Shown: positions 3,468 to 50,829, counted from the stretch's first letter. The stretch: DNA of 64,000 nucleotides from an uncultured Candidatus Saccharibacteria bacterium (GCA_964562615.1 CAZLUD010000001.1:193072-257071); one strand, 5' to 3'. Notes: generated by a model not told the origin, from the sequence alone. Numbers and translations: made by a program.

Positions 3468-4091
3468 CTATTTGATTAGTTCAATATATTCTCCAAGTAC
3501 CCATCCTTCTGTCTTTGCATCTACGACGATGAGGTACCAACCGTCTTTTGTATCTTTGTATTCATACTCAGTTCGTGGTGACACACGAGTGACGCGTGTA
3601 CCCGATGGAGATGGTGTTGCTCGAACATTAAGCCACCCTGTCTCGGTCTCACGTATGCGAAGCTTCTTAACCGCCGCTGTAGGAGCAGGCGACGTGCTGG
3701 TTGCTTGCGTACTTGTCGCTACTGAAGGAGGTGGCGTGAGGCTATCATCAAGTGGAGCTTCGTCAATCACTACTTCTGGCTTATTAGTAGTAGAAATGCC
3801 TAGGGTAAGAAAGTGCGGAGCATAAAAAACTATCCCTGCAATAATCCCAATTACTGCACTCACGACTACTATTTGAAATAGTACCCCTAAAAACGAAACG
3901 TCCTTAAAAAACGGTCGATGAGGTCGTGGCGGATACGGCTTATTACTTGCGGTGTAAGCTTCTTCTACCTCATCTTCAAATACGTCTTCTATAATCTCTT
4001 CATGCTCGTGTTCATGTGCATGTGCATTCTCGCTCGATTTTGTCTTACGAGTGATATCTTCTGTATGTGGTTTTTGTCGTTTGCCCTCCAT
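3468..4091 (-). CDS. Membrane-anchored protein with a C-terminal bacterial SH3 (SH3_3) domain and a His/Glu-rich N-terminus
   Basis: The C-terminus GWLNVRATPSPSGTRVTRV...DGWYLIVVDAKTEGWVLGEYIELI matches the SH3b consensus. There is a single TM helix, VLFQIVVVSAVIGIIAGIVFY, and the N-terminus carries HAHEHEHEE. Confidence 0.6.
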   Translation of the reverse strand: MEGKRQKPHTEDITRKTKSSENAHAHEHEHEEIIEDVFEDEVEEAYTASNKPYPPRPHRPFFKDVSFLGVLFQIVVVSAVIGIIAGIVFYAPHFLTLGISTTNKPEVVIDEAPLDDSLTPPPSVATSTQATSTSPAPTAAVKKLRIRETETGWLNVRATPSPSGTRVTRVSPRTEYEYKDTKDGWYLIVVDAKTEGWVLGEYIELIK

Positions 4092-46578: not shown

Positions 46579-46605
46579 AGTACCACATCAGCATAGTGGC
46601 AAATG

Positions 46606-46678
46606 AGCCACCTCCCAGAATCGAACTGGGGACCTACGCGTTACGAATGCGTTGCTCTACCGACTGAGCTAAGGTGGC
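46606..46678 (-). tRNA. tRNA-Thr (anticodon CGU)
   Basis: Reverse complement GCCACCU UA GCUCAGUCGGUAGAGC A ACGCA uuCGUaa CGCGU AGGUC CCCAG UUCGAUU CUGGG AGGUGGC U. The cloverleaf is complete. Confidence 0.8.
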
Positions 46679-46689
46679 GCCCTGCAATG

Positions 46690-47289
46690 CTACGCCATAT
46701 CACGTAATTTTTCAATTTCACCAAGTAAGTGGTTCCTCAATCTTGAGTTGAGAAAATATACAGTAAGAACGCCATTCTGTGATTTATTTCTATACGTTCC
46801 CTTTTTATTTGATTTAGAAACTATTGTCTTATAAAACTGAGTCTTGGAAACATTAAGTTTATTTCTCCAAAATGCTTCTACTTGTGAGACTACCACATCA
46901 TTATGAACTTGAAGTGAAAATCGTAAGTCCCTTCGATTAATTACATATCTTTTTTCCAGAAAGTGGATGAAGCAATTTAAAAGATCTGGGTCACTATTAC
47001 CAAGCCTAATTTCACTTTTGTTCTTTTTATTTCCTTCCCCCCAGTACAAGCCTAACCCCAACCCAAGTAATAATATTTCTTTTTTATTTAATGGTGTAGT
47101 AACTGAAAATGGATTACCGTTAGGATTTTTCTTGGAATAAACTGCTTCTGAAATACTCCTTTTTGTTATTCCGTTCTTTTTCAACCAATAATTTACCTTA
47201 GATATTGAACAGCCAAGTATTGTAGCAATCTCTGAGGCTGATTTCTTTTCAAAAGAATATTGTTTGATCAACACAAATTTTGCGATCAT
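46690..47289 (-). CDS. LAGLIDADG-like homing-endonuclease-like protein with N-terminal HTH
   Basis: HTH-like SASEIATILGCSISKVNYWLKKNGI. LAGLIDADG-like block LLLGLGLGLYWGEGNKKN, followed by LLNCFIHFLEKRYVI. AT-rich. Lies between two tRNA-Thr genes, 58 nt downstream of the intron-containing one. The assignment is from motif reading only. Confidence 0.4.
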   Translation of the reverse strand: MIAKFVLIKQYSFEKKSASEIATILGCSISKVNYWLKKNGITKRSISEAVYSKKNPNGNPFSVTTPLNKKEILLLGLGLGLYWGEGNKKNKSEIRLGNSDPDLLNCFIHFLEKRYVINRRDLRFSLQVHNDVVVSQVEAFWRNKLNVSKTQFYKTIVSKSNKKGTYRNKSQNGVLTVYFLNSRLRNHLLGEIEKLRDMA

Positions 47290-47347
47290 ACACTAAGTAT
47301 AAATCGCCGTTGTTATTTGTTTAATGGCAAATGTCACCACTACATTG

Positions 47348-47624
47348 AGCCGATGTCCGGGATTGAACCGGAGACCTCCCCCTTCGTGTACACCTCATTT
47401 TCTTCCCTTTGCTTTATATGAGGACTAGACTGTATCTTTCGCATATTTTACTACATGAGCAAAACGTAGCGACCCTTGTCAGTCGTTCGGGCCTTTAAAA
47501 ATAGGCCACGGTCTGGACCAGTGCTGGCCTTTAACCGTAATTCAGGTTCAACTAGTAGTTTCCTACGTAGCGGGCAATCACACGGATTACCATGGGGGTG
47601 CTCTACCAACTGAGCTACATCGGC
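47348..47624 (-). tRNA. tRNA-Thr (anticodon GGU by my reading) interrupted by a 204-nt group I intron in the anticodon loop
   Basis: Exon 1 (47589..47624) reads GCCGAUG UA GCUC AGUUGGUA GAGC A CCCCC AUGGU. Exon 2 (47348..47384) reads AA GGGGG AGGUC UCCGG UUCAAUC CCGGA CAUCGGC U. Joined exons give a perfect 73-nt cloverleaf with a 7-bp acceptor, D, anticodon and T arms. Confidence 0.6.
47385..47588 (-). ncRNA. Group I (self-splicing-type) intron inserted after anticodon nt 36 of tRNA-Thr(GGU)
   Basis: Exon nt -1 is U and the intron's last nt is G. IGS GAUUGCC (intron nt 10-16) pairs with exon GGU plus intron AAUC to form P1 with U•G at the splice site. P2 is GUAG-GAAA-CUAC. P7 is GACUG/CAGUC within an S-like element AAGAUACAGUCUAGUCC. 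P8 is CUAC...GUAG. P9 is CCUCAU/AUGAGG just before the 3' G. Structure was assigned manually. Confidence 0.55.
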
Positions 47625-49484: not shown

Positions 49485-49487
49485 TTG

Positions 49488-49561
49488 CGCGAGTGATGGG
49501 ACTTGAACCCACGACCTCTCCCGTGACAGGGGAGCGCTCTAACCAGCTGAGCTACACCCGC
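49488..49561 (-). tRNA. tRNA-Asp (anticodon GUC)
   Basis: Reverse complement GCGGGUG UA GCUC AGCUGGUUA GAGC G CUCCC cuGUCac GGGAG AGGUC GUGGG UUCAAGU CCCAU CACUCGC G. G73 discriminator. Confidence 0.85.
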
Positions 49562-49609
49562 AACTACCGCATACGTAATGCGTGTAGCGAGAGTATATAT
49601 ATATTTTGG

Positions 49610-49813
49610 CTATTTCGCAAACGTCAAAATGAGTCTATGGATAAGAATAGAAATCCATGAAATCCCAAAAACAAGCCCAATGATAAGACAAGTTGGAATA
49701 AATTCGACAGGAAAGAGCATGTTGTCCCCTGTCCAAATTGTCACAATCCCTAGCGTTGCGGTAATAATAGTAAAACTCAGAAACCCATTACGTAAATATA
49801 GTACTGTATTCAT
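49610..49813 (-). CDS. Possible small two-TM membrane protein (67 aa)
   Basis: Two hydrophobic helices. It lies between tRNA scars. Weak call. Confidence 0.25.
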   Translation of the reverse strand: MNTVLYLRNGFLSFTIITATLGIVTIWTGDNMLFPVEFIPTCLIIGLVFGISWISILIHRLILTFAK

Positions 49814-49920
49814 GCAGTATATAACTGTGGGTAATAGTTTGGGTTACAAAAATGCTCTATTCCCCCACAAACAGTGCGAAAGCACTGTTCTCCACCAACA
49901 CGGCGTTCACTTTGTTCACT

Positions 49921-49943
49921 TGTGTCGGCGGGAGGGATCGAAT
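49921..49943. repeat. Partial duplicate (22/23 nt) of the tRNA-Met 3' end (T-loop to acceptor), 134 bp downstream of the tRNA
   Basis: tgtgtcggcgggagggatcgaa is identical to 50075..50096. The T-stem partner is missing, so this is not a functional tRNA. A 9-bp inverted repeat ggatcgaa/ttcgatcc lies nearby. Confidence 0.6.
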
Positions 49944-50076
49944 CTTACAGATTCAGTACACCTTTTGGATATTTTTTTCGCAAGCTCAAAAATACCTCAA
50001 AAGGTCTTCGATCCCGCGTTACGCTCTTTCTTTGAAAGAGCTACGCCCCGCCTCCTTCAACTCACTCTGTTCGTTG

Positions 50077-50150
50077 TGTCGGCGGGAGGGATCGAACCTC
50101 CGACCTCAGCTTTATGAGTGCTGTGCTCTAACCATCTGAGCTACGCCGAC
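50077..50150 (-). tRNA. tRNA-Met/Ile2 family (anticodon CAU). Elongator Met versus lysidine-Ile cannot be decided from sequence.
   Basis: Reverse complement GUCGGCG UA GCUC AGAUGGUUA GAGC A CAGCA cuCAUaa AGCUG AGGUC GGAGG UUCGAUC CCUCC CGCCGAC A. The anticodon stem lacks the three-GC signature of initiators. Confidence 0.8.
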
Positions 50151-50239
50151 ATGTCATATGACCATACCAAAATTCTGGATTTTTTCAATTGCCTGAGTAA
50201 GTTTAGACCTCCCACGCTGCTGCGTGGGAGGTCTCATAC

Positions 50240-50665
50240 TTAATGCTGCCTCCTTTCATAAAGCGGAGTCCAGTACACTCCTTCCTCTGTGAGTGATCTT
50301 TCATTCATCCACTTAATCATTTCAAGAATACTTGGTGCTGCGTCATTATTTACCGCTTCCGTATGCATTGAAATTTCTTTCATTTGTCTAATCAGATCTA
50401 TAATCTTTTCTTTGATATCAACAACATTTTCAAGGTTAAATAACTCCCCAAAAATAGGTGCCCATCTTGGAGTACCAACGTCACCGAGGTGTAAACCACT
50501 TTCAAATTTATGAACAAATTCTCTAAAGATTCTTAATTCTTTTGTTGTTCTAAATTTTTTACCTTCAATTGCATGGTACAGCTGCATACTTGCACGTAGC
50601 CTCAAGGCAGGAAACGGAACAACAAATTCACCGAGGTTGTTCGTAGACATAAAGAAACCCTCCAC
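50240..50665 (-). CDS. Hypothetical protein (141 aa)
   Basis: Clean ORF followed by a hairpin at 50203..50232 (gacctcccacgc-tgc-tgcgtgggaggtc). No recognisable domain. Confidence 0.45.
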   Translation of the reverse strand: MEGFFMSTNNLGEFVVPFPALRLRASMQLYHAIEGKKFRTTKELRIFREFVHKFESGLHLGDVGTPRWAPIFGELFNLENVVDIKEKIIDLIRQMKEISMHTEAVNNDAAPSILEMIKWMNERSLTEEGVYWTPLYERRQH

Positions 50666-50758
50666 TGCTCATTTGTGATTAAATGAGCTACTAGACAGGA
50701 GCCTACTATAAAAATGTATAAAGTAAAAGCGTCCATATTTGGACGCTTTTACACCGTG

Positions 50759-50829
50759 TTGCGGGGACCGGATTTGCACCGATGGCTCGAGGTTATGAGC
50801 CTCGCGAGATACTTCTTCTCCACCCCGCA
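50759..50829 (-). tRNA. Atypical tRNA-like gene with CAU anticodon (U1:A72, degenerate D- and T-loops), possible pseudo- or specialised tRNA
   Basis: Reverse complement UGCGGGG UG GAGA AGAAGUA UCUC G CGAGG cuCAUaa CCUCG AGCC AUCGG UGCAAAU CCGGU CCCCGCA A. All four stems pair. The D-loop lacks GG and the T-loop lacks the TΨC consensus. A hairpin terminator follows at 50728..50752. Confidence 0.4.

Follow-up and report, generated by a model that had tools for sequence, protein, structure and literature searches.

A tRNA-Thr(GGU) gene split by a divergent predicted group I intron, and its putative LAGLIDADG-like neighbour, in a Patescibacteria-type genome

Introduction

Group I introns are found in a number of bacterial tRNA genes, and a survey raised the count of interrupted tRNA types from 4 to 21 (Williams 2020, 10.1101/2020.01.27.920355). 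A classical insertion site lies between tRNA positions 36 and 37 and is used by the introns of tRNA-Arg and tRNA-Ile2, which are listed as Arg.5Ug and Ile2.5Ug in the same survey. In Patescibacteria, 36/37 introns of tRNA-Thr(GGU) have been reported in three complete genomes (PMC13011429; Nakagawa, mSystems 2026, Table 1), that is, in 3 of the 95 complete genomes of this phylum, and according to PMC13011429 the 'divergent group I introns' of Castelle 2018 are these tRNA-Thr introns. The Rfam group I model RF00028 misses them, whereas the model gpI_bact_tRNA.cm of tFind (Williams 2020) finds all three, and for two of them ARAGORN gives a wrong identity, tRNA-Arg(GCG) (PMC13011429). The tRNA-Thr introns cluster with other tRNA introns of the Patescibacteria and were placed in subgroup IA. 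[quoted passage not shown] Some introns of the Asn/Asp/Tyr type carry genes for HNH endonucleases (PMC13011429); most tRNA introns, as published, are without endonuclease genes.

Here, we describe a member of the tRNA-Thr(GGU) family encoded in a 64-kb stretch of DNA, referred to as the window, and compare it with homologous and related loci (L numbers) from other genomes. An earlier note on this DNA had considered tRNA-Thr a possibly new host or insertion site; however, both had already been listed in PMC13011429, which cites Williams 2020 and Castelle 2018. Host, site and detection problem are thus all published, and the window merely extends a family that was described before. What may be new is confined to the linkage of tRNA-Thr genes to a family of open reading frames (ORFs), and the endonuclease-like gene tied to tRNA-Thr(GGU) is the more interesting lead than the intron itself.

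Comparison with described tRNA introns

The window intron shares host, anticodon, insertion site, length class, phylum, the failure of RF00028 and the lack of an internal ORF with the published tRNA-Thr 36/37 introns of the Patescibacteria. Nothing essential differs between the two sets, which comprise three complete genomes there and at least 112 distinct members here.

The 35/36 introns of tRNA-Asn, tRNA-Asp and tRNA-Tyr of the Patescibacteria, which belong to subgroup IA, are inserted one nucleotide earlier and in other tRNAs. Their helix order is alike, a covariance model built from tRNA-Thr introns matches them over their full length (see below), and the core motifs are common to both groups (GAUAACGGUGAA versus GAAUAACGGUUAA and AAGAUAUAGUCC versus AAGAUACAGUCU, with a swap from A-U to G-C in P7). 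P7 reads GACUA/UAGUC in the Asn/Asp/Tyr introns and GACUG/CAGUC in the Thr introns, and P3 comprises about 6 bp in the former but 3 bp in the latter. Furthermore, most of the Asn/Asp/Tyr introns that were scanned score significantly with RF00028, two of them above the gathering threshold. The IC3 introns of Azoarcus tRNA-Ile(CAU) and Agrobacterium tRNA-Arg(CCU) are inserted at the same site as the Thr introns, after the third anticodon nucleotide, have a length of about 200 nt and lack an ORF. In the Azoarcus intron, the GAAA loop L2 docks on a receptor in P8, an arrangement that the Thr family appears to share. IC3 introns differ in their host tRNA and in their core, which is of the GUAGAGACUAGACGG type (as in L008:324-530), whereas the Thr family was placed in IA (PMC13011429).

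Among the fetched Patescibacteria loci, it is common for a further tRNA gene to be interrupted by a group I intron as well. IC3-like introns lie in tRNAs with a CAU anticodon (L008:301-577, L072:2728-3026, L108:6140-6428, L055:1885-2190 and L074:2057-2361), and IA-like introns in tRNAs called as Tyr, Asp or Ser (L028:7625-7895, L084:7162-7436, L133:6997-7291, L058:1513-1802, L127:6366-6680, L021:2870-3153 and L092:907-1193); the ARAGORN names and insertion positions of these second introns are unreliable.

The split tRNA-Thr(GGU) gene

ARAGORN -i reports a split tRNA-Thr(ggt) gene at c[47347,47624], in which 204 nt of intron separate position 36 from position 37 (Table 1). The exons joined in silico fold into a cloverleaf of -33.7 kcal/mol (z = -3.2), which is equalled by none of 200 shuffles; the acceptor and anticodon stems are perfect and both exons are intact. 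These results bear out the earlier proposal that two tRNA halves lying 204 nt apart form one tRNA-Thr(GGU), interrupted in its anticodon loop after an exonic U by an element that ends in G, and the genome, which had been taken to be CPR-like, is indeed of the CPR/Patescibacteria type. The gene is missed by default ARAGORN and by the Rfam tRNA model RF00005, both of which list five other tRNAs in the 64-kb window. The intron is chiefly of importance for annotation: to default tRNA finders and Rfam, genomes of this kind seem to be without tRNA-Thr(GGU) and score as less complete. A second tRNA-Thr(GGU) gene was not detected within the 64-kb window by ARAGORN, either with default settings or with -i. 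The intron contains no ORF of its own, as only spurious ORFs of at most 53 aa overlap positions 47385..47588, and scans of the locus for promoters and terminators gave results at chance level. An identical locus is present on two metagenome contigs.

Table 1. Features of the split tRNA-Thr(GGU) locus in the window; intron position i lies at window coordinate 47589 - i.
Feature	Position	Strand	Basis
tRNA-Thr(GGU) exon 1, tRNA positions 1-36, 3' end = anticodon GGU	47589..47624	-	ARAGORN -i, sequence
Predicted group I intron, 204 nt	47385..47588	-	ARAGORN -i
P1: exon GGU + intron AAUC (47591..47585) with internal guide GAUUGCC (47579..47573); U.G at 5' splice site	47573..47591	-	sequence; covariation
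P2 hairpin with GAAA tetraloop, intron positions 17-40	47549..47572	-	RNAalifold de novo
P3 5' strand CCU (C43-U45), partner GGG (G114-G116, 47473..47475)	47544..47546	-	alignment
P4 ACGGUU/GACCGU (A51-U56/G76-U81) around J4/5 AAA, P5 GGCCA/UGGUC (positions 60-73) and J5/4	47508..47538	-	alignment, RNAalifold
P6 hairpin GGCCU/AGGCC, positions 82-99	47490..47507	-	alignment, RNAalifold
P7 5' strand: A, bulged C, GACUG (candidate guanosine-binding helix); then J7/3 ACAA and P3 3' strand GGG (47473..47475)	47480..47486	-	sequence
P8, 11-nt-receptor-like motif CGCUAC...UAUGCG, positions 117-150	47439..47472	-	alignment
J8/7 AAGAUA + P7 3' strand CAGUCU	47427..47438	-	sequence; invariant, partly fixed by search pattern
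P9.0 (GU 47425..47424 = G164-U165, with AC 47387..47386 = A202-C203) + P9 hairpin + omega G 47385 (position 204)	47385..47425	-	alignment
P9 hairpin, positions 166-196	47423..47393	-	alignment
tRNA-Thr(GGU) exon 2, position 37 to discriminator	47347..47384	-	ARAGORN -i, cloverleaf fold
199-aa ORF, N-terminal HTH + C-terminal putative LAGLIDADG-like domain, motif GLGLYWGEGNK	46690..47289	-	
Intronless tRNA-Thr(CGU), directly 3' of the 199-aa ORF	46605..46678	-	ARAGORN + Rfam

A family of tRNA-Thr introns with a conserved fold

Diverged copies of the intron occur on contigs that encode relatives of the neighbouring 199-aa ORF, and the core shared by these copies was turned into the search pattern GACTGACAAG N{12,42} AAGATACAGTC. 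With one genome per species, at least 120 loci match this pattern, nearly all of them labelled as Patescibacteria metagenome-assembled genomes (MAGs) of many lineages; complete genomes among the matches listed are those of Candidatus Wolfebacteria (L060, CP011209.1) and of a member of the Patescibacteria (L035, CP174359.1). According to ARAGORN -i, which often misnames the host tRNA (Arg gcg, His gtg or Pro ggg), 112 of the 120 listed matches lie inside a split tRNA, and the other 8 are close to the end of the locus or uncalled. A parser that demands paired anticodon and acceptor stems was applied to 129 loci with the core motif (the 120 and earlier fetches) and accepted 118. All 118 spliced products are tRNA-Thr(ggt) interrupted at 36/37, and they represent at least 112 distinct introns of 171 to 266 nt.

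Some records outside the Patescibacteria also contain members of this family. Two are labelled Bacteroidota, namely Niastella populi (L063, NZ_LWBP01000002.1, 5196-5450), an isolate genome in which the intron lies on a 300-kb contig, and Candidatus Limimorpha (L069, 4739-4780). Several other matches carry the label Gammaproteobacteria or Pedobacter MAG and may be mis-binned. The family may thus not be confined to Patescibacteria.

The fold was assessed on a MAFFT alignment of 112 sequences, onto which 53 pairs were mapped from the window structure. In these pairs, 87.8% of the cells are paired, a share that not one of 500 shuffles attained; the shuffled value is 74.0%. Changes on both sides were seen in 35 pairs and in 1029 individual cells (359 after shuffling), and the covariation score of 0.414 compares with at most 0.139 when partners are slid by 1-3 columns. 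RNAalifold predicted P1, P2, P4, P5, P6, P7 and P9 de novo from a 50-sequence subset; P8 was not predicted by RNAalifold on the MAFFT alignment. P4 and P7 never vary and thus add nothing to the covariation, and P7, J7/3 and J8/7 are also fixed by the search pattern. As compensatory changes keep the helices in 112 distinct sequences, selection on the RNA fold is implied, and the same architecture, maintained in this way across the family, means that the arrangement in the window has not arisen by chance. A minimum free energy fold of the intron alone was discarded as evidence, since its z-score of -1.9 is barely better than shuffles and such a fold cannot show the P3/P7 pseudoknot.

The individual elements are conserved to different degrees in the 112 sequences. 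P1 is paired in 87% and has GC, GC and UG pairs that are invariant in 112/112 sequences, and its inner pairs covary. In P2, 8 of the 10 pairs that RNAalifold predicts from the 50-sequence subset covary and the loop is GNRA throughout the family; only 56% of P2 is paired in the structure mapped from the window, because the bulged P2 of the window is out of register with the majority. The 3 bp of P3 are 100% paired, and double changes from CG to UA occur in 3 and 6 sequences. P4 is invariant except for one pair, where UG changes to CG. Four pairs covary in each of P5 and P6, which are 87% and 95% paired, respectively. J6/7 of the window intron reads CGAA, and the motif AAGAUACAGUCUAG is present. 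P7 consists of A103-U162, the bulged C104 and GACUG/CAGUC, with a G-C pair adjoining the bulge, and is a candidate guanosine site whose columns are fixed by the search pattern. The outer four pairs of P8 are 97% paired and all covary, as do all six pairs of P9, which is 92% paired. P9.0 (2 bp, 97% paired) is GC in 66 and AU in 39 sequences at one pair, and CG in 57 and UA in 41 at the other; the terminal G is required by the parser, but the dinucleotide that precedes it covaries with the one that follows CAGUCUA.

The earlier note had named P1, P2 with its GAAA loop, P7, P8, a P9 hairpin and the terminal G, all of which are present in the window sequence. It had found neither P3 nor P4 to P6; these helices are not absent and could be placed, together with P9.0. 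With P3 to P6 and P9.0, the topology is that of a standard group I intron and contains the P3/P7 pseudoknot.

L2 and P8 do not vary independently. A GAAA loop is accompanied by an 11-nt-receptor-like P8 (GCUAA...UAUGC) in 34 of 40 sequences, compared to 0 of 53 for GYAA or other GNRA loops (Fisher p = 1.4e-19), and the window intron combines a GAAA loop with CGCUAC...UAUGCG in P8. This pattern points to a predicted tertiary contact between L2 and P8, which would exist in two interchangeable forms within the tRNA-Thr intron family. GYAA loops go with a plain short P8 helix.

Assignment to group I

RF00028 gave no match on the window, neither at the gathering threshold nor at E <= 10. It also failed on 14 homologous loci, although the same run found the IC3-type intron in L008 at 37 bits, and its sole trace was a 26.9-bit match in L133. 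Introns in other tRNAs were recognised above the gathering threshold of 50 in L133 (61.7 bits) and L092 (54.6 bits), and below it in L021 (47.1 bits), L058 (46.3 bits), L072 (42.7 bits) and L127 (38.5 bits). That RF00028 misses the tRNA-Thr family is documented (PMC13011429), and such a false negative leaves the group I reading unrefuted.

A covariance model, R1, was built on 50 tRNA-Thr intron seeds only, with the RNAalifold structure and a short calibration that makes its E-values rough. The window intron, itself one of the 50 seeds, scores 142.9 bits. R1 also matches introns in other tRNAs of the same phylum over their full length: L028 with 30.6 bits (1e-8), L084 with 28.3 bits, L133 with 21.4 bits (1.4e-5), L021 with 16.7 bits and L092 with 15.3 bits (2e-3), and those in L133, L092 and L021 are matched by RF00028 as well. 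The tRNA-Thr family is thus homologous to recognised group I introns. Because R1 reaches introns that RF00028 recognises, and because the cores are related and the splice-site rules are kept, the window intron is regarded as a divergent but genuine group I intron. With a probability of roughly 0.88, the 204 nt are a divergent Patescibacteria group I intron at position 36/37 of tRNA-Thr(GGU), which would be spliced from the precursor to give a functional tRNA-Thr(GGU). The family would then represent a compact and naturally diverse group of predicted group I ribozymes with a P3 of 3 bp.

If so, the gene would be transcribed as a precursor, in which the intron folds into the P1-P2 and P4-P6 domains and a P3-P7-P8-P9 domain, with the GAAA loop of L2 docking on P8. 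U36 is paired with G at the end of P1, and exogenous guanosine bound in P7 would attack just behind it. P9.0 would then bring the terminal G into the site vacated by the guanosine, so that exon 1, now free, could attack after this G. Ligation of the exons would supply a functional tRNA-Thr(GGU) that is otherwise missing.

Alternative explanations

It is conceivable that the element belongs to group I but is not autonomous, so that efficient splicing would need a protein and the adjacent HTH/LAGLIDADG-like protein would act as maturase. The divergent core, which escapes RF00028, and the reduced P3 are consistent with such a dependence; LAGLIDADG proteins are known maturases of group I introns, with one bacterial case included (PMC3984707), and the well-conserved ORF family lies beside tRNA-Thr(GGU) in 69 of 71 loci, 56 of them with an intron (see below). 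However, about two thirds of the intron loci lack an adjoining close relative of the ORF, 13 ORF loci have an intronless tRNA-Thr(GGU), and ORF paralogues lie beside intronless tRNA-Trp, tRNA-Met and tRNA-Val genes. Moreover, the related Asn and Asp introns dispense with protein in vitro. A dependence on this protein is thus rather unlikely.

Much less probable is that the intron has decayed, or is some other insertion, and that this copy of tRNA-Thr(GGU) is a pseudogene. Splicing of the tRNA-Thr intron is a prediction from sequence, and standard tools find neither the tRNA nor the intron. On the other hand, every core element fits the family consensus, the exons are intact, compensatory changes extend across 112 distinct sequences, and the 64-kb window has no other tRNA-Thr(GGU). 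Finally, an intervening sequence of another kind might only resemble group I, for example a group II intron, a ribozyme of a new class or a protein-spliced intron of the bulge-helix-bulge type, as the missing match to the curated covariance model could be taken to mean. This is very hard to reconcile with the full group I topology, comprising the U.G pair at the splice site, the P3/P7 pseudoknot, the P7 bulge next to a G-C pair, and P9.0 with the terminal G, or with the reach of R1 to introns matched by RF00028. In addition, group II introns are much longer than 204 nt, and no intron of the bulge-helix-bulge type is known from bacteria (PMC13011429).

The neighbouring 199-aa ORF

On the minus strand, the split tRNA-Thr(GGU) is followed by the 199-aa ORF, tRNA-Thr(CGU) and then genes whose products have domains of a release factor (PCRF/RF-1), of an ABC-transporter ATPase and of FtsX. 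Gaps of 57 nt and 11 nt separate the ORF from the split tRNA on its 5' side and from tRNA-Thr(CGU) on its 3' side, respectively. Relatives of the ORF, about 198 aa long, number more than 800; those listed are 49-59% identical to the window ORF, and the named ones among them come from Parcubacteria/Paceibacteria-type MAGs. Pfam detects only a weak HTH in the ORF product, and this HTH resembles the DNA-binding module of two phage PHROGs families annotated as HNH endonucleases (E = 4e-5). Within the motif GLGLYWGEG, G84, E85 and G86 are invariant in 40 aligned relatives, and 2 of 40 family members give a weak match to Pfam LAGLIDADG_3 at E = 0.04. Foldseek and a sequence search against the PDB returned nothing significant for the ORF. 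We consider the product LAGLIDADG-like with moderate confidence.

The linkage of this family to tRNA genes was determined in 80 metagenome loci that had been sampled by protein alone, 71 of which have enough downstream sequence. In 70 of the 71, a tRNA gene on the same strand starts about -25 to +84 nt from the estimated end of the ORF. This tRNA is tRNA-Thr(GGU) in 69 loci, intronless in 13 and split by introns of 170-240 nt in 56; the 56 were counted as tRNA-Thr(GGU) by their ARAGORN profile, with the same miscalls and intron lengths as in the genome set, and the strict core motif is present in 40 of the 56. The two remaining loci have a tRNA-Thr(CGU) and, in L213, no called tRNA. Conversely, a close relative of the ORF lies just upstream in 33 of the 107 intron loci with enough upstream room. 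The window shares with L134 the rarer order GGU, ORF, CGU. Compared to an intron in 3 of 95 complete Patescibacteria genomes, 56 of 71 loci make for a strong association, to which shared ancestry could contribute. The anticodon arms of the neighbouring tRNAs are mostly GC-ATGGTAA-GC in intronless and CC-ATGGTAA-GG in intron-bearing genes, and two arms are common to both.

Distant paralogues of the ORF, with a length of about 226 aa and an HTH + GLxLYWGEGxK...NSDP layout, are found inside tRNA clusters (L059:1833-2153, L076:402-647, L036:1234-1551, L064:2641-2949, L127:5676-6032, L072:1975-2331 and L108:6834-7190). They lie just upstream of intronless tRNA genes (Trp, Trp, Val, Met, Met) or divergently from an intron-bearing tRNA-fMet. 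These paralogues beside other tRNAs, and the 13 intronless neighbours, speak against a strict dependence of the ORF on the intron. Together, the data suggest a wider protein family in Patescibacteria that is linked to tRNA genes and not strictly to introns, and within this family, each gene may be associated with one specific tRNA gene.

The ORF product is probably a partner of the intron, either as a free-standing homing endonuclease or as a splicing helper, or as both, the link between them being associative. It is tempting to speculate that it might be a homing endonuclease, and possibly a maturase too, for the uninterrupted tRNA-Thr(GGU) gene; the intron would shield the resident copy, and both elements would spread by collaborative homing. 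We put this forward tentatively, as the less likely outcome. The closest parallel is the collaborative homing described in PMC3984707, from which the present case differs in that it concerns a tRNA gene on a bacterial chromosome and a protein that is LAGLIDADG-like, rather than Endo VII or HNH, and known from its sequence alone. It also differs in that ORF paralogues adjoin intronless tRNAs and in that the ORF family shows a higher conservation than is typical of selfish endonuclease genes. If the ORF product is active, it would explain the persistence and movement of ORF-less tRNA introns in the reduced genomes of the CPR and would supply new LAGLIDADG-type nucleases specific for tRNA genes. 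Collaborative homing, if true, would call for a correction of the published view that these tRNA introns, being without endonucleases, are immobile.

The gene order around the ORF recurs on related contigs. In the window, tRNA genes for Met, Met and Asp (49487-50829, minus strand) precede Thr(GGU), the ORF and Thr(CGU) (46605-47624, minus strand), followed by the PCRF/RF-1 gene, and the same order is found in L003, L005, L138, L149 and L212, with Thr(GGU) and Thr(CGU) sometimes swapped around the ORF. Six of the 40 relatives in the alignment have the C-terminus ...(K/L)PM*. The ORF was examined in L003, where it overlaps the downstream tRNA, which ARAGORN calls from position 3597, as the ORF extends to 3606. 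From this locus, we infer that such ORFs stop at the conserved TAG of tRNA positions 8-10. Processing of a co-transcript by RNase P would in that case remove the stop codon of the ORF.
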